This document shows, one piece after another, positions 13,273 to 47,425 of a DNA stretch of 64,000 nt. Source of the stretch: Bacillota bacterium (GTDB taxonomy: Bacteria; Bacillota; Clostridia; Christensenellales; UMGS416); contig JAEYRH010000003.1 of assembly GCA_023435705.1 (NCBI GenBank), positions 202,737 through 266,736 of the forward strand, written 5' to 3'. The position numbers were made by a program, and so were the translations under genes. Each line of letters opens with the position of its first letter. The first letter of the stretch is position 1. The notes beneath the pieces were generated by a model. It was not told where the DNA came from and did not search any database. It saw only the letters and a list, made by a program, of their open reading frames with translations.

Positions 13273-13334
13273 ATTCCTCAAGCATGACTCGCCCTGCCAC
13301 TTCGTGGCATCCCCTACAGGAGGGAGTAAATTGC

Positions 13335-15563: not shown

Positions 15564-15833
15564 GTGAGAGCGATTATTACCGTAGTCGGCCAAGACATGA
15601 TGGGCATCATCGCCCGTGTGTCAGCCATTTTGGCCGCCAATAATGTAAACATCCTTGATATCAGCCAATCGGTGCTGCAGGAGTTTTTCGCGATGGTGAT
15701 GCTGGTGGATCTGGCCAAGTGCGAAGCACCCTTTGCCGATTTACAAGCCAAACTGGAAGAGGGAGGCCGCGAGCTTGGCATGACGGTGCGCATCCAGCAT
15801 GAAGCGGTCTTCCAGGCGATGCACCGGATATAA
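15564..15833 (+). CDS. ACT-domain protein of the UPF0237 family
   Basis: GTG start 7 nt after GGAGGA gives (M)[37 protein letters not shown], about 89 aa. It is paired with the UPF0210 gene downstream. Confidence 0.75.
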
Positions 15834-15861
15834 GGATGCCGCAGAGCGGCAGGGGGAGTTT

Positions 15862-17220
15862 ATGTTAACCCATACCGAAATATTGCAGACCATCCGCATG
15901 ATCGAGCAGGAGAACCTGGACATCCGCACGATCACAATGGGGATATCCCTGCGGGACTGCGCCGATTCTGATGCCAGGGCCTCGCAGCAGAAGGTTTATG
16001 ACAAGATCTGCCGCATGGCAAAGGATCTGGTCGCTGTGGGTGAAGCCATCGAAAGAGAATATGGCATCCCGATTGTGAACAAGCGCATCAGTGTGACGCC
16101 GATCGCTTTGGTCGCGGAAAGCTCCCGTGAAAGCGACATGACCCCGTGGGCCCATGCGATGGACCGGGCAGCCCGCGAGGTGGGTGTGAATTTCATCGGA
16201 GGCTTCAGCGCGCTGGTGCATAAAGGCTATACGGTTGGCGACAGGGCGCTGGTCAACAGCATTCCGGAGGCGCTTGCCCAAACCGAGCGGGTGTGCGCAT
16301 CGGTCAATGTGGCCACAATCCGCGCCGGCATCAATATGGACGCCGTGGCTGAAATGGGCCGCGTGGTGAAGCGATGCGCGGAGCTCACGGCTGACCGGGG
16401 CGCAGTGGCTTGCTCAAAGCTTGTGGTGTTTGCCAACGCCGTGGAGGACAACCCCTTCATGGCCGGTGCGTTCCACGGCGTGGGAGAGCCGGAGTGCGCA
16501 ATCCATGTGGGTGTGTCCGGCCCCGGTGTGGTCAAGCACGCATTGGAGCAGGTGCGTGGCGAGAAATTTGACGTTGTGGCCGAGACGATCAAGCGCACGG
16601 CCTTCAAGATCACACGAATGGGTCAGTTGGTGGCCGAGGAAGCCTCCAGGCGGCTGGGTGTGGAGTTTGGAATTGTGGATCTTTCACTTGCCCCCACGCC
16701 GGCCATTGGCGACTCGGTGGCCGCGATCCTGGAAGAAATGGGTCTTGAGCGCACCGGGGCCCCCGGCACCACAGCGGCGCTGGCGATGCTCAACGATGCG
16801 GTGAAAAAGGGTGGCGTGATGGCCTCCAGCCATGTGGGCGGGTTGTCCGGCGCGTTCATCCCGGTGAGTGAGGATGAAGGCATGGTCAATGCCGTTCTGG
16901 CCGGTGCGCTCACGTTGGAGAAGCTGGAGGCGATGACCTGTGTGTGCTCGGTGGGGCTGGATATGATCGCCATCCCCGGAGACACACCGGCGGAAACCAT
17001 CGCTGCCATCATCGCCGATGAGGCGGCTATCGGTGTGGTGAACCAAAAAACCACTGCTGTGCGCATACTCCCCATCCCTGGCGGCAAGCCCGGCGACATC
17101 GTGGAGTATGGCGGGCTGTTTGGCCGGGCGCCGGTGATGCCGGTGAGCCAGTTTTCCAGCAAGGCATTCATTGACCGCGGGGGAAGGATCCCCGCGCCGC
17201 TGCACAGTTTGAAAAACTGA
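15862..17220 (+). CDS. PFL-like UPF0210 (DUF711) family protein
   Basis: [33 protein letters not shown] matches the typical UPF0210 N-terminus. 452 aa. RBS GGGGGAG. Confidence 0.8.
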
Positions 17221-17413: not shown

Positions 17414-17578
17414 TAGGAAATATTTGTTACAACCAATTGAAATCAGGGTATTAAATTTGCAGTAGTAATGAATCGCGGCTCCAATGAATGTTTAGGCACC
17501 AATACCAGTTTGGCAGTTCTGGCAGTCTTCGGCAGCAATCGAACCCGGCACTACAACCGAAAAGTGGAGGATGAAACA

Positions 17579-19933
17579 ATGAAGTTTCTGTTGAACATGA
17601 AGATCATGCCCAAACTGATCGCCGCTTTCCTATTGGTGGCAGCGATCGCTGCGGCTGTGGGCGCTGTTGGTATATTCAACATATCTGATATCAACAGTGA
17701 TTACACAAAAATGTATTACAACACCACAGTTCCGCTCAACGATATGGTCACGCTGTCCGGGATGTGGCAACGATCCAGGCTGGTCATGCGAGACGTCATT
17801 TTGAAAGATGACACGGAGAGCATGAAGGATGAGCTTGAAAGCCTGCAAGCCAAGTTTGATAATGTGGTTGCTGCGCATGATAAACTTGGCAAATCCATAA
17901 CTGACGCTGAAGCCAAGCAGCTATTGCAGGACTTCAAAGCGAAATATGACATCTATCTGCCGCTCAAAGACCGTGTTGTCGCTTTGGCAGTGGAAAACAA
18001 GGATGGAGAGGCCGAACAGCTGATGCAGAGCCCCGAAGTGGATGGGGCTGCCGGGGATGTCACTGATGCGATCTCTGCATTGGGTGATAAGCTCTCCGAG
18101 TTGGGCAGCAAAACAATGGCATCGAACACGTCCGGGGCGAATACTGCTACCTGGATCATGTGGGCGTTGATCGCTGTGGCTGCTTTGCTCTCAGTGGGGC
18201 TCGGGCTGTTGGTCGCGGTTTCAATCAGCAACCCGATCCGCAGGGTGGTGAAAAGCGCCCAAGATATTGTGATGGGTGATTTCAGCACCAATGAGGGTTT
18301 TGGTATAGACAACGGCACTGAAATCGGCCAACTGGCCAAAGCTTTTCAAGATGTAAAAGACGCGATCGGCAGTCTGATTACCGACATCAATCTGCTGGTG
18401 CAGGCCTCAGAAGAGGGCAGGCTGGAAACCCGTGTGGACTCGAAAAAGTACAGCGGTGAATACAGGCGGATCATCGATGGCTTCAACAACAGCCTGGAGG
18501 CCATCCACATGCCTGTGAAGGAAATCACTGTGGTGCTGGACAAAATGTCTGTGAACGACCTGACCATGAAGGTAAACGGCGTATATCGCGGTGATTTCCA
18601 GACAATGATTGACGCAATGAACGGTGTAACGGAGCGGCTTGTCTCCATTCAGACCATATTCATCAATATGGCAAAAGGCGACCTGTCACAATTGGAAGGC
18701 TTCGAGAAAATCGGAAAACGCAGCGAGAATGACCGGATGCTTCCGTCGGTCATCCGGTTCATGCGCATTCTTGAGAACCTTACAGAAGATATCCGCAAAC
18801 TGACTGTGGAAGCATCAAACGGCAATCTGGACGTGCGCGGTGATGCTTCTGAATATGAGGGGAAATATGCGCAATTGCTGCTGGGAATCAACGGTATCAT
18901 CAACGCGATGGCAGAACCCCTGCGTGAATCGGTGTCTGTATTGGGGTCGATGGCTGGCAATGATTTCTCCCAGAGCATAGATGGGGATTATAGAGGTGCG
19001 TTCCTCGAGTTGGCTGAGTCGGTGAATAGTGTAACCGATACCCTGAACCAAACGCTCCACGAAATCAACATCGCGTCTGAGCAGGTGGCATCAGGCACCA
19101 ACCAGGTGGCGGCCGGCAGCCAGGCGCTCAGCCAGGGCGCAACCGAGCAAGCCAGCGCCATCGAGCAGCTCACAGCGTCGCTCAATGAGATCGCCGGCCA
19201 GACCAGGCAGAACGCACTGAACGCCAGCCAGGCAAGCGAACTTTCGAATACGGCCAGAAGCAACGCGATCTCCGGCAATGAGCAGATGCGCAACATGCAG
19301 CAGGCGATGTCTGCGATCAACGAGGCGTCCAACAACATCTCGAAGATCATCAAGGTGATAGACGAAATTGCCTTCCAGACCAACCTGTTGGCACTGAACG
19401 CGGCGGTGGAAGCCGCCCGAGCCGGGCAGCATGGCAAGGGTTTTGCAGTGGTAGCCGAAGAAGTGAGGAGCCTGGCCCAGCGGAGTGCCAATGCTGCAAA
19501 GGAAACCACAGCCATGATCGAGGAGGCCATTCGCCGGGTGAAGGAAGGCTCGAAGATGGCTGACAACACGGCCACGGCATTGAACCGCATTGTGCAGGAT
19601 GTGGAAAAGGCAACGGAGCTGGTGGGTGGCATCGCCAAGGCCAGTAACGACCAGGCTTCCGCTATTGCCCAGGTAAACAAGGGAATCGAGCAGGTGAGCC
19701 AGGTCACGCAAACCAACTCAGCCACCGCTGAGGAGAGCGCCGCCGCCAGTGAGGAGCTCTCCAGCCAGGCGGCCTTGGTCAAGGAAATGGTTGGTCGGTT
19801 CAACTTGAAGCAGCACAACAGGCTCGCCTCGCAGAAGAGCACCAGCCAGGGTAAGCCATCCGCAACTCAAGTTGGTCGGCTTACCGGTAAGCCGCAGATC
19901 GCTCTGAATGATCGTGAGTTTGGCAAGTACTAA
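17579..19933 (+). CDS. Methyl-accepting chemotaxis protein (four-helix-bundle sensor, HAMP plus extra HAMP-like repeats)
   Basis: Start at [14 protein letters not shown] (GGAGGA RBS). Two TM segments. The conserved signalling core is [38 protein letters not shown]. Confidence 0.9.
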
Positions 19934-19960
19934 GCACGATTGGATTCAACAAGCATTCCG

Positions 19961-19986
19961 AGGCCCCGCAGTGCGGGGCCTTTTTC
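19961..19986 (+). terminator. Rho-independent terminator after the first chemoreceptor gene
   Basis: GGCCCCGC-agt-GCGGGGCC followed by TTTTT. Confidence 0.85.
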
Positions 19987-20126
19987 GATTCTGATGAATT
20001 GCCCGCTGGTTCTTTTAGAAGGCACAGGTATTCCTGGTTAAATCGCGTTATTCTTATATATTTGGTTTGTGATCCGTCAATTTTGGGCATTATTTATTTG
20101 AAAGCCTAAGCAAAGGGGAGAAATGA

Positions 20127-22703
20127 ATGAAAAGACGTAAGGGCATTACCATTGCTGTGAAGTTCGCGCTGGTGATTACCGTTGTATTGATGATTTGCAG
20201 CGCGTCCATCGGCGTTCTTGCATATCTTTCGGCCAGTAATGAATCGATGGAGGCGCTGCGGCAGAGACTGCAGAACAAGGTGACGGACAGCGCGGCGCAG
20301 ATCAAGCTTCAGATCCATGAGTACTTTACGTCTCTGGAGGGAATTGCGTTGCGCCCCGATATCGTGGGCATGGACTGGGACACACAAAAGCCTGTGTTGG
20401 AAAAGGAAGCAGCAAGGCTCGGGTTTATGAAAATGGGCGTTTCCAACCTGGATGGCGAAGCAGTCTATAGCAATGGGTCTTCTACCAACATTTCCAAACG
20501 CCAATACTTCCAGCTGGCGGTTGCGGGGAGCACCAACATATCTGACCCGCTGATGAGCACTGCGGAAAACAAGATGGTGCTGGTCATCGCCACACCCATC
20601 AAGGATTCCACCGGTAAGATAACCGGTGTGCTGCTGGCCACATCGGATGACCGATTCCTGAGCAACCTGGTCGGCAGCGTAAAGGAGGGCTCCACAGGTT
20701 ATGCCTTCATGCTCAACAAAAGTGGCACAGTGATTGCCCATCCGCAGCAACAGCTTGTGCTTGAGGCAAACAACAATGCCGACAAGCTGAAAGAGAACGG
20801 CGATTTGGCCTCATTGGTGACCGTGGAGAAGAAGATGATTGCCGGCGAAGATGGATTTGACACGTTTGTGAGCAAAGGTGTGCCATACTTCAGCAGCTTC
20901 ACTGGCATAGAGGGACTGGGTTGGTCAATGGCCGTTGCTGTGACCCAGCAGGAGGTTCTGGAGCCAATGGTGCGCTTGCGTGCAAGCATTGTTATGGCTA
21001 CTTTGATTTCTCTGTTGGCTGGTGTGTTCGCGGCGATCCTGTTCGCCCGTATGCTGGTTATCAAGCCAATTCAAGCAATCACCGCAGCGGCCAGAAAGCT
21101 TGCTTTGGGAGATATTGACGTGACGTTCCAGACTCGCTCAGGCGATGAAATCGGGCAGATGTCAGAGGCATTTGAGTCTATCATAAGGGGCATCCGGCAG
21201 CAGTCAGAAGCAGCGGAGAAAATTGCAAATGGAGAAATGGATGCTGATGTGACCGTGCGATCTGATAAGGATGTGCTGAACAACAGCCTGGAGTCAATGA
21301 TCCGAACGCAGCGGCAACTTTCCAGCCAGTTTGAGACGTTGATCCAAGCATCTTCCGCCGGAGATTTTTCACAACGCGGTGAAGCCGGTATGCTCAGCGG
21401 TCAATATGCGCGCATGCTCTCTGGAGTGAACTCCATCCTCGACGAGGTGGAGGGAGCTCTTGCCAAGATCAAATCGGCGCAGCTTGTGGCTCAAAAGCAG
21501 GCATCATATCAGCAGGCAGAGGTTGGGAAGCTGGTTAGGAATCTGGAGCGGTTGGCTGAGGGCAGCCTTGATTGCGACATGCAGGCCGCACAGCCGGATG
21601 CGGATACGCAGGAGCTTTATGAGGTCTATGACGGCATCAGCCACAACCTGCATCAGAGCGTCAACGCCATCCGTGGTTATATCTCAGACATCACCCATAC
21701 ACTGGGCATGATGTCACAGGGCAATCTGGATGTGCAGATCACGGGTCAATACAAGGGCGATTTTGTGCGCATCAAGGAATCGATCAATGAGATCATCTTG
21801 TCCCTCAACGATACATTGCATGAGATCAACACCTCTGCCGAGCAGGTGGCTGCCGGAACCCAGCAGGTTGCCGCCGGCAGTCAGGCCCTTTCACAAGGCG
21901 CGACTGAGCAAGCCAGCGCCATCGAGCAGCTCACCGCATCACTGATGGAGATTGCTGCGCAGACCCGCCAGAACGCCTTGAGCGCCGCTGAGGCAAGCGC
22001 ACTGGCCCAGACTGCCAAGCAGGACGCAGTCGAGGGTGATGATCGGATGGATCAACTGCAGCGGGCGATGGGCGAAATCAATGAATCGTCTACGAGCATT
22101 TCCCGGATCATCAAGGTCATTGATGAAATCGCATTCCAGACCAACCTGCTCGCGCTGAATGCGGCGGTGGAGGCCGCCCGTGCCGGACAGCATGGAAAAG
22201 GGTTTGCAGTGGTGGCTGAAGAGGTGCGCAACCTGGCGCAGCGCAGCGCCAACGCAGCCAAGGAAACGACCGCTATGATTGAGGGGTCCATCCGCAAGGT
22301 GAAAGAGGGAACGCGCATTGCCAATGACACGGCCCAGGCATTGAACCGGATTGTGGGCGGCGTGCAAAAGGCGTCAGTGCTGGTAGGCGGAATCGCCGAG
22401 GCCAGCGGCAGCCAGGCGCAGGCCGTGGCACAGGTGAACACCGGCATCGATCAAGTGAGTATGGTCACGCAAACCAACTCCGCCACGGCCGAAGAGAGCG
22501 CCGCTGCCAGCGAAGAGCTCTCCAGCCAGGCTGTGATCCTGAAAGACATGGTGGGGCGGTTCACTCTGAGGGGCCAAGCGCCCATCAGCGGTCAGCGAGG
22601 GACTGTTCTGCAAGCCGGTGACGGTAAACACAAATCCAGCGTCACGAGCAACCTGACCAAGCCCAGGATATCATTGGCAGACACGGAATTTGGGAAATAT
22701 TGA
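20127..22703 (+). CDS. Methyl-accepting chemotaxis protein with a dCache-type periplasmic sensor
   Basis: 858 aa. The periplasmic region has Cache-like motifs ([31 protein letters not shown]). It also has HAMP and the same signalling core, [38 protein letters not shown]. Confidence 0.9.
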
Positions 22704-28856: not shown

Positions 28857-30167
28857 ATGGTCAAGATCGCGTTTATGGGCGCCGGCAGCACGGTGTTTTC
28901 CAAGAATGTGCTGGGGGATTCGATGCTATCCCCGGCGATGCATGACTGTGAGATCGCGCTGTATGACATTGACAGCGCCCGCCTGGACGAAAGCTTCACG
29001 ATGCTGCAGGCGATAAACAAAAACTGCAATGAGAACCGCGCCACGATCCGGAAGTATCTGGGGGTGGCTAGCCGACGGGATGCTTTAAAAGACGCCAACT
29101 TTGTGGTGAACGCCATTCAGGTGGGCGGTTATGACCCCTGCACGATCACCGACTTCGAGATCCCGAAAAAGTTTGGCCTCAGGCAGACCATCGCCGACAC
29201 GCTGGGCATCGGCGGCATCTTCCGCACGTTGCGCACGCTGCCGGTAATGTTTGATTTTGCCACCGACATGGAGGCCGTGTGCCCCAAGGCATGGCTTTTA
29301 AACTACACCAACCCGATGGCGATGCTGACCGGGGCGATGCTGCGGGCCACAAAGGTCAAGACGGTGGGCCTGTGCCACAGCGTGCAGATCTGTGCTTCCA
29401 GCCTTTTGAACGGTGTGGATCTGGAGTATGACGACCAGGTGCAGTGGAAGATCGCCGGCATCAACCACATGGCCTGGCTGCTGGAGATCACGAAGAACGG
29501 TGTGGATCTGTATCCGGAGATCAAGCGCAGGAGCAAAGAAAAGGGCGCCCCTGAGTGGGACAAGGTCCGCCATGAGATCATGCACACCTTCGGCTACTAT
29601 GTGACCGAATCGAGCGAGCACAACGCCGAATATATGCCTTACTTTATTAAGGAGAAGTATCCGGAGCTCATTGAGCGCTACAACATCCCGCTGGATGAAT
29701 ACCCACGCCGCTGTGTCAACCAGATCGAAGGCTGGAAGCGCATGCGCGACAGCCTGGTGAACAACCCCGATCTGGAGCACCAGCGCTCCCATGAATATGC
29801 CTCCTACATCATGGAGGCCATGGTGACCAATAAGCCCTACAAGATCGGCGGCAATGTGCTGAACACCGGCTTGATCACCAACCTGCCGGCCAAGGCTTGT
29901 GTGGAAGTGCCCTGCCTGGTGGATGCCAGCGGCATCGCACCTTGCCACATCGGCGAGTTGCCGGAGCAGTTGGCGGCCTTGAACCGCAGCAATATCAACG
30001 TGCAGCTGCTCACGATCGAGGCAGCACTCACCCGCAAAAAGGAATATATCTACTACGCCGCGATGAACGACCCGCACACCGCCGCTGAGCTTTCCCTTGA
30101 TGATATCAAGGCCATGTGCGATGAGCTGATCGAGGCCCACGGGGATTGGCTGCCAGAGTATAAGTAA
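28857..30167 (+). CDS. Glycoside hydrolase family 4 alpha-glucosidase/alpha-galactosidase (NAD+/Mn2+ dependent type)
   Basis: MVKIAFMGAGSTVFSKNVLGD (Rossmann N-terminus), NYTNPMAMLT, VGLCHSVQ, GINHMAW. 436 aa. RBS GGGGAGGAA. Confidence 0.85.
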   Translation: MVKIAFMGAGSTVFSKNVLGDSMLSPAMHDCEIALYDIDSARLDESFTMLQAINKNCNENRATIRKYLGVASRRDALKDANFVVNAIQVGGYDPCTITDFEIPKKFGLRQTIADTLGIGGIFRTLRTLPVMFDFATDMEAVCPKAWLLNYTNPMAMLTGAMLRATKVKTVGLCHSVQICASSLLNGVDLEYDDQVQWKIAGINHMAWLLEITKNGVDLYPEIKRRSKEKGAPEWDKVRHEIMHTFGYYVTESSEHNAEYMPYFIKEKYPELIERYNIPLDEYPRRCVNQIEGWKRMRDSLVNNPDLEHQRSHEYASYIMEAMVTNKPYKIGGNVLNTGLITNLPAKACVEVPCLVDASGIAPCHIGELPEQLAALNRSNINVQLLTIEAALTRKKEYIYYAAMNDPHTAAELSLDDIKAMCDELIEAHGDWLPEYK

Positions 30168-30230
30168 TCCCCCTCTGTCGCTGTTGCGGCATCCCCCCCT
30201 GCTAAGGGAGGGTGGGGAGGTTGCTTGATC
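30168..30230 (+). repeat. Copy of the module-1 double-hairpin intergenic repeat
   Basis: CCCCTCT-GTCGC-tgtt-GCGGC-ATCCCCCCCT-gcta-AGGGAGGGTGGGGAGGTTGCTTGATC aligns with 33071..33127, 45042..45095 and 47217..47272. Confidence 0.75.
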
Positions 30231-30244
30231 TTGATGTCAATGTA

Positions 30245-30268
30245 GGGGCCGGGCTCAGTACCGGCCCC
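30245..30268 (+). repeat. GGGGCCGG hairpin repeat (one of three copies)
   Basis: GTAGGGGCCGGgctcagtaCCGGCCCC. Near-identical copies lie at 46014..46036 and 49930..49952 in inverted orientation. Confidence 0.75.
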
Positions 30269-32866: not shown

Positions 32867-33250
32867 TTACCCCATCCCCTTACCCCTTCCCCGAATTACA
32901 ATACGGCAACCGTCGGGCTTTCGGAGGGGAAGGGGAGTATCAGCAGGGCTTCGCCCTGCACCCACTGTCCCGTAGTGGTTGGGCTCCAGGTCGCAGGGGC
33001 GAGCAGCATTCGCAGAATGCATCCAGCCCGTCCTAGCCCGTCGTTCCAACCCGTCCCCGGCCCTGAAACTCCCCCTGTCGCCTCCGGCGACATCCCCCTC
33101 AATAGAGGGACAAGTATAGCTTGATCGGAGCTTCCTTGCCTCCCTCTATATCACCCCTTCTAGGGGTGACACCGCCGAAGGCGGTGGGGGTCAATGAGGG
33201 AGGTGGCGGCGAAGCCGCCGGAGGGAGTTTTCCGGTTTACATCTTCCCCC
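32867..33250 (+). repeat. Composite hairpin-dense repeat block between kbl and recJ (modules 3, 1 and 2 with a nested insert)
   Basis: At least eight perfect GC-rich stems. Examples: CCCCTTCCCC/GGGGAAGGGG, CAGGGC-ttc-GCCCTG, GTCGCC-tcc-GGCGAC, TCACCCC/GGGGTGA, CACCGCC-gaa-GGCGGTG, GGCGGC-gaa-GCCGCC. Homologous to 47160..47390. Confidence 0.8.
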
Positions 33251-36297: not shown

Positions 36298-36373
36298 GAA
36301 TCACCGGGAGTTTCTCACCCCTGGATCATGGGAATAATACAATAAAAGCATCCATCCCCCAAAGGAGATTTCA

Positions 36374-38600: not shown

Positions 38601-39731
38601 CTATTTCAACTTTGTTGTCGCAAGGCCTTTCCAACCTTCCACCTCGCAGGCTCCTTCTTCATTACTTCCGGTTGAAACTGCAGTGCCATCTGCTTTCAGG
38701 CCAACCACATGGCCTGACCCGGCTGTGATGGCGATGATGTTTGTCCAATCCTGTATGTTGCCTTCCCCAAACATGTTCTGCCCGGCGGCCACCACTGTGC
38801 CGTCTGCTTTCAGCCCATAGGAGCAGTACCCTCCGACGGCGATGGCGATGATGTCGCTCCAGGATTCCACATTGCACTCACCATCGTTGTTGTATCCGGT
38901 GGCAACCACGGTGCCGTCAGCCCTGAGCCCCAGCACGGTTCTTTCATTCGCCGCGATGGCTACAATTTTTGTCCACTTGCTCACGTTGCATTGCCCATAT
39001 TGATTGTTTCCTGTGGCAACCACTTTGCCATCCTTTTTCAAGCCAACTCCGAATCGTTCGCCGGCTGCGATGGCTATAATGCCCTTCCAGTTTTTTACCT
39101 TGTTGGGGTCAGAGCTCTTGTAATCGATGCCGTTTGACAAGACTGTTCCGGCAGCTTTCAACCCTATCACGGTATCATTTCCACCGGTTGATACCGCGAT
39201 GATTTTCTTCCACTTTTTCAGCGTGCGGCTCAAATAGCTTCTCTGCGATCCTGAGACCACAACGGTGCCATTGGATTGCAAGCCCACGACGTGAACATAT
39301 CCGGCTGATATTGCGACAATCTTGTTCCATTTGGCTGTGTTGATCCCATACTCCTTGTTGTTACCCGCTTGGACAACTTTCCCATTCTTGGTGATGGCAA
39401 ACGAGAAGTTCCCTGCGGCAATATTGCCCGCAAGCAGCCGGCGCGAGGCCTGCAATTTTGCCAAATCTGGTTTTGCCGTGGGTGTGGGTGTTGGCGCAAG
39501 CGTTGGAGATGCGGTGGGCTCCTGTGTCATTTCCAGCGTTTTGGTTGGAGCCACAGTGGGCAATAAGCTGGGAGCAGCCGTGTGTGAAGCGGTGGGAGAG
39601 GGGCCCATAGTTGCCGTTGGGGTGGGCTTCGCCACAGCGGGTTGGCACGCCGAAAGGAAGCAGGCGGCCAGCAGCAGAAATGCCGTCAATGCTGATGTTA
39701 GCATGGTGGATCTCTTTGACTTTGCACTCAT
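38601..39731 (-). CDS. Lipoprotein with about seven RCC1-like (RCC1_2-type) beta-propeller repeats
   Basis: Signal peptide plus lipobox (FLLLAAC), then a Pro/Thr-rich linker. Seven ~38-aa repeats follow, of the form W-x-x-I-[IV]-A-I-[AS]-x-G...GL[KR]xDGTVVxxG. It is full-length homologous to the C-terminal half of 39788..41869. Confidence 0.8.
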   Translation of the reverse strand: MSAKSKRSTMLTSALTAFLLLAACFLSACQPAVAKPTPTATMGPSPTASHTAAPSLLPTVAPTKTLEMTQEPTASPTLAPTPTPTAKPDLAKLQASRRLLAGNIAAGNFSFAITKNGKVVQAGNNKEYGINTAKWNKIVAISAGYVHVVGLQSNGTVVVSGSQRSYLSRTLKKWKKIIAVSTGGNDTVIGLKAAGTVLSNGIDYKSSDPNKVKNWKGIIAIAAGERFGVGLKKDGKVVATGNNQYGQCNVSKWTKIVAIAANERTVLGLRADGTVVATGYNNDGECNVESWSDIIAIAVGGYCSYGLKADGTVVAAGQNMFGEGNIQDWTNIIAITAGSGHVVGLKADGTAVSTGSNEEGACEVEGWKGLATTKLK

Positions 39732-39787
39732 GATTTCACCTCATATTCTTCTAGACTGTCTGGGCATTGGTGAGAAGTCAATTTGAT

Positions 39788-41869
39788 TTATTTCAGCCTT
39801 GTCGTTGCGAGTTTATTCCAACCGTCCACTTCACAGGCCCCTTCTTCGTTTGACCCGACTGCTACCGCGGCGCCATCGTGCCGCAGGCCAACCACATGCC
39901 CTGATCCGGCTGAGATGGCGATGATATCGGTCCATTTGTCTGTGTTGCGCTGGCCTAAATGGCCATCGCCCGCGGATATGACCGTGCCATCTGCCTTCAA
40001 CCCATAAGAACTGAAGTCACCCACGGCAACTGCTACGATGTCACGCCAGGCTTCCACGCTGCACTCTCCGTCGATGTTGTAACCTGTGGCCACCACCGTT
40101 CCGTCAGCCTTTAATCCTAGCACCGTCCTCGAGCTTGCCGCGATGGCAACGATATCTTTCCACTCGCCTACGTTGCATTGTCCATATTCATTGTTGCCTG
40201 TGGCCACCACCGTTCCGTCTGCCTTTAGCCCTATTCCAAACCCTTCACCGGCTGCGATGGCGACAATGTCTTTCCAGTTCTTTACTTTGTTTGGATCCGC
40301 GCTATCATAAAATATCCCGGTGGATACTACGGTGCCATCTGCTTTCAGGCCCATGATCACATCGTTGCCGCCAGCAGCTATTTCAACGATATTTTTCCAC
40401 TCTTTGGTATTCCTCTCAAAATCTGGCCTGCCGTGCCCGCCGGTTACGACTACGGTGCCATCGGAGCGCAATCCGGCAACGTGTACGAATCCTGTGGATA
40501 TAGCTACCATCTTGCTCCACTTGCTTGTATCGATTTGGTATTCCTTGATATTCCCAGCCTGGTGGACCTTCCCGTCTTTTGTGACGGCAAACGTGCAAAT
40601 CCCTGCAGCGATATTTCCTGCGATTAACCGACAGTTGGCTTGTAATTGGGATATGTCGGGATTCACCGTTGGTGCAGGGGTCGGGGTGGGTTCCGATGTT
40701 GGGGTGGGTGCGGCAGTTTGCGCAGGCGATGCTGTTGGTGTTGGCTTTGCCGATGCGACCAACTCCAGATCGGCAGAAGCCGGCTGCGCAGTGGTGGGTT
40801 GGCAGGCTGTGGTGAAGCAAGCCACAAGCAGGAGAATTGCCGTGATCACTGCAGCCAGCCGCGTAGAGGTGCTGGATTTTTCGCTCATAAAAACACCCCT
40901 TATTCTTTTTTCTGCGCTGGTCCTGTTGTGTTCCATTCCCATACCCATTACAGGCTTTACGCTTCCTGGCTGGCTGAAGAGCATCAGCAGTGTTGAGGCA
41001 TACTGCCTTTTTTCGTCATTGCCCATCTTTTTGACCACAGTGCTGTCACAAGACACTTCCATGTCCTGCTGCATTTGATGGGCAGCGAGCCAAACAACCG
41101 GGTTGAACCAATACACACATCTCAATACCATCAGCAACAAGGAAATGATGTGATCACCCCTTTTGTAGTGGGATAGCTCATGGCGGAAGATATGCTCCAA
41201 TGTCTCGGGATTGCGATGGCTCTCGCTTGGCAGCAACAGTATCGGTGCAACGCTGATGGAAAGAGCCGGTGTGGAGATGCCATTCAAGATTACAGGCCTT
41301 GGCCCATGGCGAATCCCCAACTCCAGCTTGAGCCTCTCAAACAGGCGCCGCTCTGCGGAGGGCAATGGCTGCTTGTTGCGCAGGATCGATGCGGAGAGCC
41401 TGAGGTGAACAAACGCGAACCAAGCGCATACCGAGATGATACCGACAAACCATATGGCTGGCAGCACATGCTCCAGATCCCGGGACCACCAACCTGGATC
41501 CGTATTGCGATTAACTTGTGGTATTGCCGGAGCATTCACCGGCATCGACTCATCTTTCGTAACGTTTTTCATTGTATTGGTGGCGGTTTCTTGTGAATTG
41601 GCAACTGGCAGAGCGTTGTTATGATTGGTGTGCTCGCTGCCAGCCTGCAACAATTGAGTGACTTGTTGTGTTTGTTGTGGCAGAGTGATCAGGTGGAACC
41701 CACCTTCGATGGTAACGGGCATTAACAACCGCAACAGCAGAAGGAACCACACTCCATATTGCATCGCGGCTGACATCTTGTTGCGAAACAGCGTGCGAAA
41801 GAGCAGGATTGCCAGATAAAGAACGGCAGAATAGACAGTAATCTCGGCAAGCGCCTCAAGAACCCTCAT
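39788..41869 (-). CDS. M56-family (BlaR1/MecR1-like) membrane zinc metalloprotease fused to an extracellular RCC1-like seven-repeat propeller
   Basis: Start at MRVLEALAEIT (GGGAG RBS), overlapping the blaI-like stop by 14 nt. Multi-TM N-terminus with FRHELSHYKRGDH (HExxH) and YWFNPVVW. Then a TM/lipobox-like segment (LLLVAC), a PT linker and seven propeller repeats. Confidence 0.85.
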   Translation of the reverse strand: MRVLEALAEITVYSAVLYLAILLFRTLFRNKMSAAMQYGVWFLLLLRLLMPVTIEGGFHLITLPQQTQQVTQLLQAGSEHTNHNNALPVANSQETATNTMKNVTKDESMPVNAPAIPQVNRNTDPGWWSRDLEHVLPAIWFVGIISVCAWFAFVHLRLSASILRNKQPLPSAERRLFERLKLELGIRHGPRPVILNGISTPALSISVAPILLLPSESHRNPETLEHIFRHELSHYKRGDHIISLLLMVLRCVYWFNPVVWLAAHQMQQDMEVSCDSTVVKKMGNDEKRQYASTLLMLFSQPGSVKPVMGMGMEHNRTSAEKRIRGVFMSEKSSTSTRLAAVITAILLLVACFTTACQPTTAQPASADLELVASAKPTPTASPAQTAAPTPTSEPTPTPAPTVNPDISQLQANCRLIAGNIAAGICTFAVTKDGKVHQAGNIKEYQIDTSKWSKMVAISTGFVHVAGLRSDGTVVVTGGHGRPDFERNTKEWKNIVEIAAGGNDVIMGLKADGTVVSTGIFYDSADPNKVKNWKDIVAIAAGEGFGIGLKADGTVVATGNNEYGQCNVGEWKDIVAIAASSRTVLGLKADGTVVATGYNIDGECSVEAWRDIVAVAVGDFSSYGLKADGTVISAGDGHLGQRNTDKWTDIIAISAGSGHVVGLRHDGAAVAVGSNEEGACEVDGWNKLATTRLK

Positions 41870-42248
41870 TTTGCTCTCCCTTCTTGGCCAGCTGCTCCAG
41901 CAGCTTCGCCAACTCCTCCTGGTCTTTGCTGGATAGCCCACTTTCTTTGATCATGCACACCAACAGCTCTTTTGTGGAAGTTTCGGTAACCTTTTGCAGC
42001 AAGCCTCTGCTCTCGTTGAGGATGCACTGATCCTTTTCCACCAGAGGGAAATAGTAGTTGTCTCTGCCTCTGGTTTCAAAGCCAACAAACCCTTTTTCGT
42101 TGAGCTTCCGCAAATAGGAGGCATAAGTGCGGTAGCTCCAGTTCAGAGACCCTTTCATCGTTTCGATCACGCCGGAAAGTGTCTGTGGAGACTTTTCCCA
42201 CAGGGCAGACATCACGGCCCATTCGGATTTGGTGAGCGTATCAGGCAT
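41856..42248 (-). CDS. BlaI/MecI/CopY-family winged-helix transcriptional repressor
   Basis: MPDTLTKSEWAVMSALWEKSPQTLSGVIETMKGSLNWSYRTYASYLRKLNEKGFVGFETRGRDNYYFPLV. ATG at 42248 lies 6 nt after GAGGTG. The ORF track starts at the in-frame GTG 42257. Confidence 0.85.
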   Translation of the reverse strand: MPDTLTKSEWAVMSALWEKSPQTLSGVIETMKGSLNWSYRTYASYLRKLNEKGFVGFETRGRDNYYFPLVEKDQCILNESRGLLQKVTETSTKELLVCMIKESGLSSKDQEELAKLLEQLAKKGEQNEGS

Positions 42249-45005: not shown

Positions 45006-45041
45006 CCCATCCAGAGAGACTCCTCTCTGCTCCTAAAGAAA

Positions 45042-45095
45042 TCCCCCCTGCCCCTATGGGGGCATCCCCCCTTATCAAGGGAGGGTTGGGATTAG
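45042..45095 (+). repeat. Copy of the module-1 double-hairpin intergenic repeat
   Basis: CCCCCC-TGCCCC-tat-GGGGCA-TCCCCCCTT-atc-AAGGGAGGGTTGGG aligns with the copies at 30168, 33071 and 47217. Confidence 0.7.
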
Positions 45096-47117: not shown

Positions 47118-47159
47118 AACATGGATCAGGTTGGACAACTACAGTTGGATAGGGGACTA

Positions 47160-47390
47160 CTTGCCTCCCTCTTGAGGGAGGTGCCGCCAAAAGCGGTGGA
47201 GGGAGTTTCACGAACTCACCCTGTCATCTTCGATGACATCCCCCTCAGGAGGGGGACAAGTGTAGCTCGATCAATCTGTTCGTTGACGAGCTTGCTTCCC
47301 TCTTGGCCCCCCTTGCTGCATCCGCAGCTGTCCCCCCACAAGTGTGTGGGGGGAAGGGTAGGTGGCAACAAAGCCGCCGCAGGGAGTAAA
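47160..47390 (+). repeat. Composite repeat: module 2 + module 1 + a second, diverged module 2
   Basis: 47160..47208 reads CTTGCCTCCCTC-tt-GAGGGAGG...GGAGGGAGTTT. 47217..47272 is module 1. 47283..47390 is collinear with 33128..33232 and includes the stem CCCCCCACA-agtg-TGTGGGGGG. Confidence 0.8.
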
Positions 47391-47425
47391 CAAAAGAACA
47401 GCCACGTTGAAGCGCAGCTGTTCTT
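47388..47425 (-). terminator. Rho-independent terminator after gpmI
   Basis: Minus strand: AAGAACAGC-loop-GCTGTTCTT followed by TTTGTTT. Confidence 0.75.

Follow-up and report, generated by a model that had tools for sequence, protein, structure and literature searches.

The window analysed here, a 64,000-nt stretch of contig JAEYRH010000003.1 from a Bacillota genome assembly, is bacterial chromosome of ~56% GC with genes for methyl-accepting chemotaxis proteins (MCPs), SecDF, a Coat_F protein, scpA/B, recJ-relA and tdh/kbl, and its host is probably a motile, spore-forming member of the Bacillota; an Akkermansia host, suggested by the GC content, was set aside in view of the chemotaxis and Coat_F genes. 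Its intergenic spacers harbour a short repeat that was first recognized as four plus-strand copies of a C-rich lead followed by two hairpins, situated between a GH4 glycosidase gene and tdh (c1), between kbl and recJ (c2), between a radical-SAM gene and a DUF4037 gene (c3), and between an acetyltransferase gene and iPGM, which converges on it (c4). All four copies are present, both by reading of the sequence and by matches to a covariance model (CM R1) that was built solely from copies in other genomes and then run on the window. This model gave eight matches at E<=1.5e-4, on both strands, and a ninth decayed copy at E 0.05; in total there are at least nine copies, all of them intergenic, five on the plus and four on the minus strand, at a density of roughly one per 7-10 kb. 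The first-pass annotation placed hairpin 1 correctly at 30177-30190, 45049-45064 and 47223-47237, and one nucleotide too far at 33078-33092 (the true limits are 33077-33091). Its statement that the copies all lie on the plus strand holds for the four it listed and fails for the family, inverted copies of which were found at 47158-47211, 33133-33233, 47326-47392 and 15810-15864. What it had described as a second, separate repeat ('module 2') is in fact the same unit on the opposite strand, since an nhmmer profile of the four listed copies matches the reverse strand of 47159-47209 (E 7e-4), as does CM R1. The reverse complement of 47160-47209 reads GAAACTCCCTCC-ACCGCttttGGCGGC-A-CCTCCCTC-aa-GAGGGAGG-CAAG, which is paralleled at 33065-33114 by GAAACTCCCCCT-GTCGCCtccGGCGAC-A-TCCCCCTC-aata-GAGGGA-CAAG.

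The copy between kbl and recJ (c2, originally delimited as 33071-33127) occupies 33063-33116 on the plus strand (CM R1 43.9 bits, E 1.1e-10) and is a partly decayed unit of what we call type 2. It is composed of the lead CTCCCCCT (33069-33076), hairpin 1 GTCGCC-TCC-GGCGAC (33077-33091), a single A (33092), the pyrimidine arm TCCCCCTC (33093-33100), an AATA loop, the purine arm GAGGGA (33105-33110) and a CAAG tail; two G have been lost from the purine arm relative to GAGGGGGA, and CM R1 flags non-pairs in helix 2. Inverted with respect to c2 is m2b (33133-33233, minus strand), a type 1 unit that scores 56.0 bits with CM R1 when a loop insertion is allowed and that reads, on the plus strand, CCTCCCTC (33139-33146), a 49-nt insert in the loop of hairpin 2 (33147-33195), GAGGGAGG (33196-33203), T, hairpin 1 GGCGGC-GAA-GCCGCC (33205-33219), a third strand corresponding to the lead, GGAGGGAG (33220-33227), and TTTT. 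The insert holds two extra hairpins, CACCCC..GGGGTG (33152-33168) and CACCGCC-GAA-GGCGGTG (33170-33186), and the DNA fold of this copy reaches -30.5 kcal/mol (z -5.5). Copies c2 and m2b thus make up a tail-to-tail dimer of a type 2 with a type 1 unit (33063-33233).

The spacer between the acetyltransferase and iPGM genes carries a mosaic of three units, m2a, c4 and m2c (47158-47392). The first of these (m2a, 47158-47211, minus strand, the former 'module 2') is an intact type 1 unit (CM R1 55.5 bits, E 6e-14), which on the plus strand, here G-rich, consists of CCTCCCTC (47164-47171), a TT loop, GAGGGAGG (47174-47181), T, hairpin 1 (47183-47197), the third strand GGAGGGAG (47198-47205) and TTT. 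Copy c4 (47209-47262, plus strand, the copy originally placed at 47217-47272) is a near-intact type 2 unit (CM R1 47.1 bits, E 1.4e-11), with lead CTCACCCT (47215-47222, in which an A replaces a C), hairpin 1 GTCATC-TTC-GATGAC (47223-47237) and, after a spacer A (47238), the pyrimidine arm TCCCCCTC (47239-47246), which an AG loop joins to the purine arm GAGGGGGA (47249-47256); the tail is CAAG. Its DNA fold comprises two hairpins with the lead unpaired (z -3.25). As had been noted, c2 and c4 share the tail GACAAGT[A/G]TAGCT[T/C]GATC, and they form a repeat family (D18) with 82% identity over 60 nt. The third unit, m2c (47290-47392, minus strand; repeat family D15), is decayed and is the copy detected by CM R1 at E 0.05 (13 bits, on 47326-47392). 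Its plus-strand order is CTTCCCTC (47296-47303), a loop insert with two hairpins (47304-47352), GAAGGGTAGG (47353-47362), an imperfect hairpin 1 GGCAAC-AAA-GCCGCC (47364-47378) and GCAGGGAG (47379-47386).

The consensus of the ~50-nt unit is nnnn-AA-CTCCCTCC-[G...C hairpin 1]-A-CCTCCCTC-loop(2-5)-GAGGGAGG-C-(A/T)(A/T) on the C-rich strand and CCTCCCTC-N2-5-GAGGGAGG-T-hairpin-GGAGGGAG-TT on the G-rich strand, where the CCTCCCTC/GAGGGAGG arms form hairpin 2, an 8-bp Watson-Crick stem. A scan of all loci for hairpin 1-A-pyrimidine (Y) arm-loop-purine (R) arm, in which the lead was left unconstrained, yielded 102 units, among which hairpin 1 (14-22 nt, stem of 5-10 bp, TTC being the commonest loop) occurs in 70 distinct sequences. 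Covariation was assessed on 150 aligned family members, with 500 shuffles and slid-register controls. Over both helices, 94.1% of the cells are paired and 290 show a double change, versus 85±7 in shuffled alignments, and the covariation score is 0.358 versus 0.113 after shuffling (0/500 as high; slid controls 0.04-0.09). Four of the six pairs of hairpin 1 change on both sides, pair 18/57 being AU in 69 members, GC in 41, CG in 17 and UA in 13. The compensatory changes that the first reading had seen in hairpin 1 are therefore confirmed, hairpin 2 is found to covary too and, since the stems are kept through paired substitutions, selection acts on structure rather than on primary sequence, as had been suggested.

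The C-rich lead had been taken for plain flank, yet it covaries with both arms of hairpin 2, and does so in the parallel register of a triple helix. The 8 nt preceding hairpin 1 mirror the pyrimidine arm and hence share the polarity of the purine arm, whose G and A they face with C and T, respectively. This is the organization of an intrastrand triplex: a Y block complementary to an R block, and a third block mirror-matched to the purine block. In the lead-unconstrained scan, 98/102 units have no more than two non-triplet positions, and each type of purine arm comes with its own lead: GAGGGAGG with CTCCCTCC in 44 of 50 copies, GAGGGGGA with CTCCCCCT in 16 of 19, GAGGGGGC with CTCCCCCA in all 6, GAGGGGGG with CTCCCCCC in 4 of 5, GAGGGAGC with CTCCCTCA in 3 of 4 and GAGGGAGA with CTCCCTCT in both copies. 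Rarer divergent families combine GGGGGAGG with CCCCCTCC (one copy), GGAGAAGG with CCTCATCC (two copies) and GGAGAGGG with CCACTCCC (one copy), and the same rule governs GAAGGGGG, which is found with CAACCCCC, and TGGGGAGG, which is found with GCCCCACC. In the window, the triplet rules are respected at 8/8 positions in m2a (47158-47211) and at 7/8 in c4 (47209-47262). In the model alignment, the (lead,Y,R) triples at position 8 are (C,C,G) in 94 cases, (T,T,A) in 26 and (A,G,C) in 19, and those at position 6 are (T,T,A) in 101 and (C,C,G) in 41. The columns of lead and purine arm share mutual information only along the diagonal that represents the parallel register (0.66 and 0.96 bit at the two variable positions). 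In the 28 genomes with at least two types, 101 of 112 units are concordant, versus 55±5.3 in within-genome shuffles (maximum 75 in 10,000), and when the parallel register is scored as pseudo-pairs there are 69 double-change cells versus 19±3 (0/500 shuffles as high).

Because CTCCCTC is mirror-symmetric, the lead could also pair with the purine arm in the antiparallel orientation, and we have considered a conformational switch in which lead and pyrimidine arm would compete for the purine arm by Watson-Crick pairing, in an attenuator-like manner. Such a helix is paired in 93.9% of cells, yet its covariation score of 0.074 equals that of the shuffles and it contains a single double-change cell. 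Moreover, changes at position 6 break pair 12/126 in 46 sequences and weaken pair 8/130 in 43, the best register varies with the type (5-8 bp), and the repeat has neither an orientation bias nor a consistent downstream gene, so that the antiparallel helix was rejected and a switch is regarded as very improbable. The diagonal three-way covariation, together with the failure of the antiparallel register, indicates that the constraint is that of an intramolecular triple helix. All four copies are members of one non-coding, REP/BIME-like family of dispersed repeats, and we consider it probable that its ~50-nt unit is built to fold, when single-stranded, into a hairpin-clamped intramolecular triplex. 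Hairpin 2 would provide the Watson-Crick duplex, hairpin 1 would be a rigid linker that turns the chain, and the lead, as the outer segment, would occupy the major groove alongside the purine arm. In minimum free energy folds the lead stays single-stranded beside the two hairpins.

Which strand would fold can be approached through the triplets themselves. On the C-rich strand the order is third strand-Y-R, i.e. that of a pyrimidine motif (C+.G-C, T.A-T), and on the G-rich strand it is Y-R-R, which would give a purine-motif triplex with its second loop replaced by a hairpin of 14-22 nt. The triplets tallied on the G-rich strand are G*G-C (575), A*A-T (174), T*A-T (17) and T*C-G (11). Opposite an A of the purine arm the lead thus has T (174) or A (17, in 9 types), never C or G, and opposite an inverted Watson-Crick pair, with C on the purine arm, it has A (11). 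T*C-G is a tolerated triplet at C-G inversions, and at neutral pH protonated cytosine is disfavoured. The pyrimidine motif has no place for a lead A opposite A-T or C-G and would also need a protonated C in 6/8 triplets; both points argue for a purine motif on the G-rich strand. So do the loops of hairpin 1, which on that strand are C-GNA-G in 46/102 units (GAA 33, GCA 8, GTA 5), since C-GNA-G is an exceptionally stable mini-hairpin loop in DNA; we know of no special stability of the corresponding C-UUC-G loop in RNA. Judged by sequence, triplet types and loops would thus favour a purine-motif fold of the G-rich DNA strand. This would be in line with the published rule for purine-motif triplexes, which are built of A(T)*A-T and G*G-C and do not form in RNA (PMC4666352).

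The same features bear on the possibility that the element acts at the RNA level, as a C-rich transcript that would form a pyrimidine-motif RNA triplex (C+.G-C, U.A-U) and protect 3' ends from exonucleases or terminate transcription, in the manner of REP elements and the ENE/MALAT1 triple helices. The four copies originally listed are all on the coding strand of the flanking genes, with c1 starting 1 nt past a stop codon, and copies are more frequent in convergent than in divergent spacers (21 vs 13, with crude open reading frame (ORF) calls). Furthermore, pyrimidine-type intrastrand triplexes can form in RNA (PMC4666352). However, between co-directional genes 31 copies are sense and 30 antisense (same crude calls), an unbiased orientation that speaks against a strand-specific RNA role, most copies belong to inverted dimers, and the requirement for protonated C in 6/8 triplets and the misfit of lead A apply here as well. 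The unit is not followed by a T/U run either: its 3' flank is CAAG or CTTTG (consensus C-A/T-A/T-G/T), unlike that of an intrinsic terminator. Rfam 15 has no match in the window at the gathering score; when the window copies and eight repeat-rich loci were searched in E-value mode, only sub-threshold chance matches emerged, mostly to eukaryotic families (miRNA, snoRNA). An RNA element, which the first-pass annotation had offered as one option together with a check against Rfam covariance models, is therefore unlikely.

Still less credible is a G-quadruplex that the G-rich strand would form from the G tracts of GAGGGAGG and GGAGGGAG, hairpin 1 being a long loop, or an i-motif formed by the C-rich strand; we regard either as improbable in the extreme. 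The unit does have four short G (or C) tracts, and G-rich triplex sequences can compete with quadruplex folding (PMC4666352). A quadruplex, however, needs neither the pyrimidine arm nor the mirrored placement of A, both of which are conserved and covary, type 2 units have only two long G runs, and NMR (nuclear magnetic resonance) showed the comparable TMECO repeat to be a triplex rather than a quadruplex (PMC4666352).

The expectation under which the original proposal would have fallen, that no further copies exist, can be dismissed since hundreds of copies are found across many genomes. A scan of a genome collection with a loose pattern returned at least 115 loci, and the host range and counts that follow come from the matches listed, among which about 80/115 loci hold true units; the covariance model found 182 matches at E<1e-3 in 730 kb of DNA from Oscillospiraceae, Acutalibacteraceae, Negativicutes and other gut genomes. 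Most hosts are Oscillospiraceae, Acutalibacteraceae, Clostridia or Negativicutes. They include Ruminococcus, Faecalibacterium, Faecousia and Lachnospiraceae, the cultured Negativibacillus massiliensis (Marseille-P3213T, host of L110) and, in the Negativicutes, Pelosinus, Phascolarctobacterium and Schwartzia. A few metagenome-assembled genomes (MAGs) are labelled Synergistaceae, Thermoguttaceae, Armatimonadota, Peribacteria or Proteobacteria, and some of these cross-phylum labels may be binning errors. The exact type 1 pattern was also seen in 24 stretches on 19 IMG/VR viral contigs (L118-L141), five of them on the 34 kb contig IMGVR_UViG_3300031555_010700; these copies could reflect a vehicle for spread between taxa or, alternatively, host flanks of prophages.

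Neighbouring units within 150 nt of each other are arranged tail-to-tail, with purine arms facing, in 34 cases, head-to-head in 11 and in tandem in 4. The resulting dimers measure 100-170 nt, have imperfect terminal inverted repeats (AACTCCC...GGGAGTT) and usually join halves of unlike types, such as type 2 with type 1, and single half-units are common (35 loci with one copy). The family thus consists, as REP/BIME families do, of short imperfect palindromes of several types that alternate in orientation within intergenic clusters, and the REP-like behaviour originally proposed for it is borne out. In the Oscillospiraceae termite-gut MAG Th196P3bin36, a ~200-nt mosaic is found at four or more loci with ~90% identity (L048, L050, L062, L070, L104). 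Its parts are a hairpin that resembles a terminator, a conserved spacer with TTATA at its end, a dimer of type 2(+) with type 1(-), and a GGGCGGG..CCCGCCC hairpin; its amplification appears to be recent. No transposase was found by Pfam among 24 ORFs from the window and two repeat-rich loci, most of them flanking repeats; whole genomes were not searched. The genes lying between repeats (L092, L086) or next to window copies are unrelated (type I restriction-modification, DUF559, EamA, methyltransferase, RecJ, iPGM), and the idea of a transposase or a defined cargo between repeats was accordingly dropped. No target-site duplication is evident in the aligned flanks and no consistent neighbouring gene was found beside the copies. 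Nor did a strain without an insertion turn up, as exact-protein look-ups retrieved the same strain or nothing.

The remaining copies in the window are more diverged. Copies c1 and c3, which form a repeat family (D19) with 74% identity over 58 nt, represent a divergent subfamily (A). Copy c1 (30163-30220, plus strand; CM R1 24.4 bits, E 3.1e-5, match 30163-30218) starts 1 nt past the stop codon of the GH4 gene and consists of lead TCCCCCTCT (30168-30176), hairpin 1 GTCGC-TGTT-GCGGC (30177-30190, one G.T pair), A, pyrimidine arm TCCCCCCCT (30192-30200), loop GCTA, purine arm AGGGAGGG (30205-30212) and, after a T, a further purine run, GGGGAGG (30214-30220). Both c3 and a copy from another genome, L046:2024-2130(-), can be aligned with it. 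Copy c3 (45035-45091, plus strand; CM R1 25.1 bits, E 2e-5, match 45035-45090) has lead TCCCCCC (45042-45048), hairpin 1 TGCCCC-TATG-GGGGCA (45049-45064), pyrimidine arm TCCCCCCTT (45065-45073), loop ATC, purine arm AAGGGAGGG (45077-45085), TT and GGGA (45088-45091). All three share a C.A mismatch, in which the purine arm has A where both pyrimidine strands carry C, a (C,C,A) triple seen five times in the 150-member alignment. They also share a GGGAGG run 2 nt past the purine arm (30205-30220 and 45077-45091 in the window), which creates a BoxC-like, short-loop Y-R-R arrangement on the very strand that bears the 5' pyrimidine lead; subfamily A may be a link between the hairpin-connector and BoxC layouts. 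Downstream of c1 lies a further hairpin, GGGGCCGG-gctcagta-CCGGCCCC (30245-30268), without a T run. It is conserved alongside the c1-type unit in L046, where the repeated block consequently extends to ~107 nt and exceeds the module first described.

Two other copies are decayed or truncated. The one at 13282-13332 (plus strand; CM R1 22.0 bits, E 1.5e-4) has lead CTCGCCCT, hairpin 1 GCCAC-TTC-GTGGC, A and TCCCCTAC..GGAGGGAG, and lies between scpB and a glycerol-3-P antiterminator gene. The Pfam domain of the latter begins at residue 33 of the longest ORF, which puts this copy upstream of the probable true start. The copy at 15810-15864 (minus strand; CM R1 23.8 bits, E 4.7e-5) is truncated and has lost hairpin 2, retaining the lead AAACTCCCCCT and hairpin 1 GCCGC-TCT-GCGGC upstream of a DUF711 gene (Pfam domain from residue 33 of the longest ORF). 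As to the ~50-nt inserts in the hairpin-2 loops of the two inverted units m2b and m2c (33147-33195 and 47304-47352), each contains two GC hairpins, one of them bearing a C-GAA-G loop, and insertions seem to be tolerated by, or drawn to, the loop of hairpin 2. The insert at 33147-33195 was considered as a nested unit and was not counted, since its own lead mismatches its own purine arm; the inserts are not triplex-type units. A fifth plus-strand copy of the octamer CATCCCCC is found at 36353-36360 upstream of relA, right before its GGAG ribosome-binding site. It is not a family member, as the covariance model has no match there even at E up to 10, nor is this octamer by itself enriched (7 occurrences in the window vs 4.4 expected).

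Nothing in the window points to regulation of the flanking genes (GH4/tdh-kbl, recJ-relA, radical SAM, acetyltransferase/iPGM) by the repeat. Another candidate, phage-type promoters of a phage genome, suggested by conserved motifs of 20-30 nt before genes, was discarded: the window is chromosomal and only its housekeeping genes match a phage collection. Most of the large direct-repeat families in the window have a different origin and are explained by the RCC1 repeats (Pfam) of two adjacent minus-strand genes at 38601-41941, with internal repeats of 114 nt (38 aa); the second of these genes is fused to a BlaR1-type M56 peptidase domain. There are in addition two paralogous gene pairs, at 45-2121, where repeats 45-344/1442-1741 and 582-715/1988-2121 are 72-75% identical, and at 17468-22703, where tandem MCP genes show ~70% identity (19041-19340/21802-22101).

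The closest known systems are the BoxC/PIT/TMECO repeats of E. coli and other Proteobacteria. The TMECO/BoxC pattern, CCCTCNCCC-N3-6-GGGNGAGGG-N3-GGGNGAGGG, occurs 3610 times in 262 proteobacterial genomes, always in intergenic regions, without strand bias and often in inverted pairs that combine types A and B; it forms a very stable purine-motif triplex in vitro, as established by circular dichroism and NMR, acts neither as promoter nor as terminator and has been linked to rearranged loci, and its C-rich strand is disfavoured as a triplex by the need for protonation (PMC4666352). The family described here resembles these repeats in having three G/C-rich blocks in the order Y-R-R on the G-rich strand, the first complementary to the second and the third its mirror, a GAGGG-type core and a high conservation, and in being intergenic, without strand bias or a functional class of neighbours, and arranged in inverted pairs of unlike types. 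It differs in the connector between purine arm and third strand, which is a 3-nt loop in TMECO and here a T/A plus a hairpin of 14-22 nt whose 5-10 bp stem covaries, and in its arms, which are of 8 nt (CCTCCCTC/GAGGGAGG) rather than 9 nt (CCCTCNCCC/GGGNGAGGG) and depart from the TMECO consensus, being similar in composition but not homologous by alignment. Its hosts differ too, being mainly Clostridia, Negativicutes and other gut anaerobes, whereas those of BoxC/TMECO are Proteobacteria or Cyanobacteria. Subfamily A, with its short-loop GGGAGG run, is closer to the BoxC layout. Published triplex searches have limited loops to 0-10 nt (Hoyne et al. 2000) or 1-6 nt (ITxF) (PMC4666352). In the present family loop 1 is of 2-5 nt and the second connector is a hairpin, so the family falls outside catalogues made with these limits. 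On triplex repeats a single substantive paper was found (Holder et al. 2015; PMC4666352), in which neither Firmicutes nor hairpin connectors are mentioned, and a literature search for CACCTCCCTC and similar strings returned nothing relevant. A side product of the scan pattern, picked up by chance, was a Desulfosoma MAG, hence deltaproteobacterial, with two tandem short-loop triplex motifs CCCCTCTCCCCC-tcca-GGGGGAGAGGG-tc-GGGGTGAGGGGG in the BoxC/TMECO layout (L006:7607-7753(-)).

Comparison with other dispersed repeats leads to a similar picture. Like REP/BIME, the family is made of short, GC-rich, palindromic intergenic units of several types, with compensated stems, in alternating mosaics, but a REP consists of one imperfect hairpin of 20-40 nt and lacks a third strand, and there is no sequence similarity. 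REPs are also linked to RAYT (TnpA-REP) transposases, none of which turned up here, where no systematic search was made. With miniature inverted-repeat transposable elements (MITEs) such as Correia/NEMIS, ERIC, RUP and BOX it shares non-coding, multi-copy, intergenic dimers of 100-170 nt with imperfect terminal inverted repeats and near-identical mosaics at several loci of one genome; on the other hand, no target-site duplication was recognized, its single half-units are common and its usually unlike halves cannot form one long hairpin. Finally, mirror symmetry and base-triplet rules (C.G-C, T.A-T or G.G-C, A.A-T) are common to H-DNA mirror repeats and designed R-loop-Y-loop-Y triplexes, but here all three strands lie in cis on one strand, the connector is a structured hairpin and the family is natural, multi-copy and covarying. 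The family works like BoxC/TMECO and BIMEs, yet it is a variant rather than a member.

Several points weigh against a triplex. Only two of the eight positions (6 and 8) vary often, with rare changes elsewhere, and the number of independent triple-compensated events is modest, at least three, plus six type combinations. Counts are inflated by the co-inheritance of all three segments when units are copied, and shuffling within genomes accounts for host lineage but leaves subfamily descent uncontrolled. Given the near mirror symmetry of the lead and its potential to pair antiparallel with the purine arm in 93.9% of cells, an alternative conformer may exist. The constraint on the window copies is weak, as seen in the conserved C.A mismatch of subfamily A (c1 and c3) and in several decayed copies. 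The folds were computed with ViennaRNA, which models Watson-Crick pairing and leaves triplexes outside. In vivo dimethyl sulfate footprinting of TMECO, moreover, showed no stable triplex in growing E. coli (PMC4666352).

Part of this would be expected of a plain REP/MITE-like double hairpin whose lead is a conserved terminal inverted-repeat or recognition sequence, the match of lead to purine arm being a matter of subfamily descent, of a duplex H-DNA mirror repeat or of a protein that reads both pyrimidine tracts. Block copying predicts co-inheritance of the three segments, the scarcity of frequently varying positions fits, and so do the imperfect terminal inverted repeats of the dimers and the ~200-nt mosaics present at least four times in one MAG. 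However, the six combinations at positions 6 and 8 obey a single C.G / T.A (A.C-G) rule while coexisting within single genomes, and the diverged purine arms GGAGAAGG, GGAGAGGG, GAAGGGGG and TGGGGAGG retain a parallel-matched lead. In addition, the halves of dimers are usually unlike, so that complementarity between the two ends is poorer than the match of each lead to its own purine arm, and a symmetric protein dimer would be expected to select direct or inverted repeats, not mirror repeats. A plain repeat is thus rather doubtful, and the hairpin-clamped triplex remains our preferred explanation.

In that scenario, the G-rich DNA strand would fold transiently once replication, transcription or supercoiling opens the duplex, and the family would spread and persist in intergenic spacers as single units, inverted dimers and mosaics. 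Triplex formation itself, the strand that folds and the consequence for the cell are what we infer from the architecture and the covariation observed across the copy family. Possible consequences include a roadblock to polymerases or helicases, a hotspot or site of recombination and a recognition site for a mobilizing enzyme, and our best guess is that a transient single-strand DNA triplex serves as roadblock, recombination site or recognition site of a selfish repeat. The window copies would then be mostly decaying passengers rather than regulators of neighbouring genes. More tentatively, the triplex might be under selection as the functional form of a repeat that has spread over gut anaerobes of several phyla and phage-like contigs, and be recognized or processed by single-strand DNA machinery (mobilization, fork handling or recombination).

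Repeats with intrastrand triplex potential (BoxC/PIT/TMECO) have been known for 25 years, and the case for a cellular role of the triplex has rested on sequence potential and in vitro folding. To this the present family adds a three-strand covariation, across many genomes and in the triplex register, which is the type of argument that established RNA secondary structures. It extends this kind of element to Clostridia, Negativicutes and other dominant gut and rumen anaerobes, in which it is frequent, and the fact that a stable hairpin can replace a triplex loop means that catalogues limited to loops of 6-10 nt undercount such motifs. On the practical side, polymerases are likely to stall, assemblies to break and rearrangements to occur at these units in MAGs from the gut, and the units should be masked in searches for regulatory RNAs. 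The family is widespread and has a cultured host, and as a comparative case for a bacterial triple helix it is unusually clean; if the triplex is indeed selected, the long-doubted formation of such structures in living bacteria would become directly testable in Negativibacillus massiliensis.

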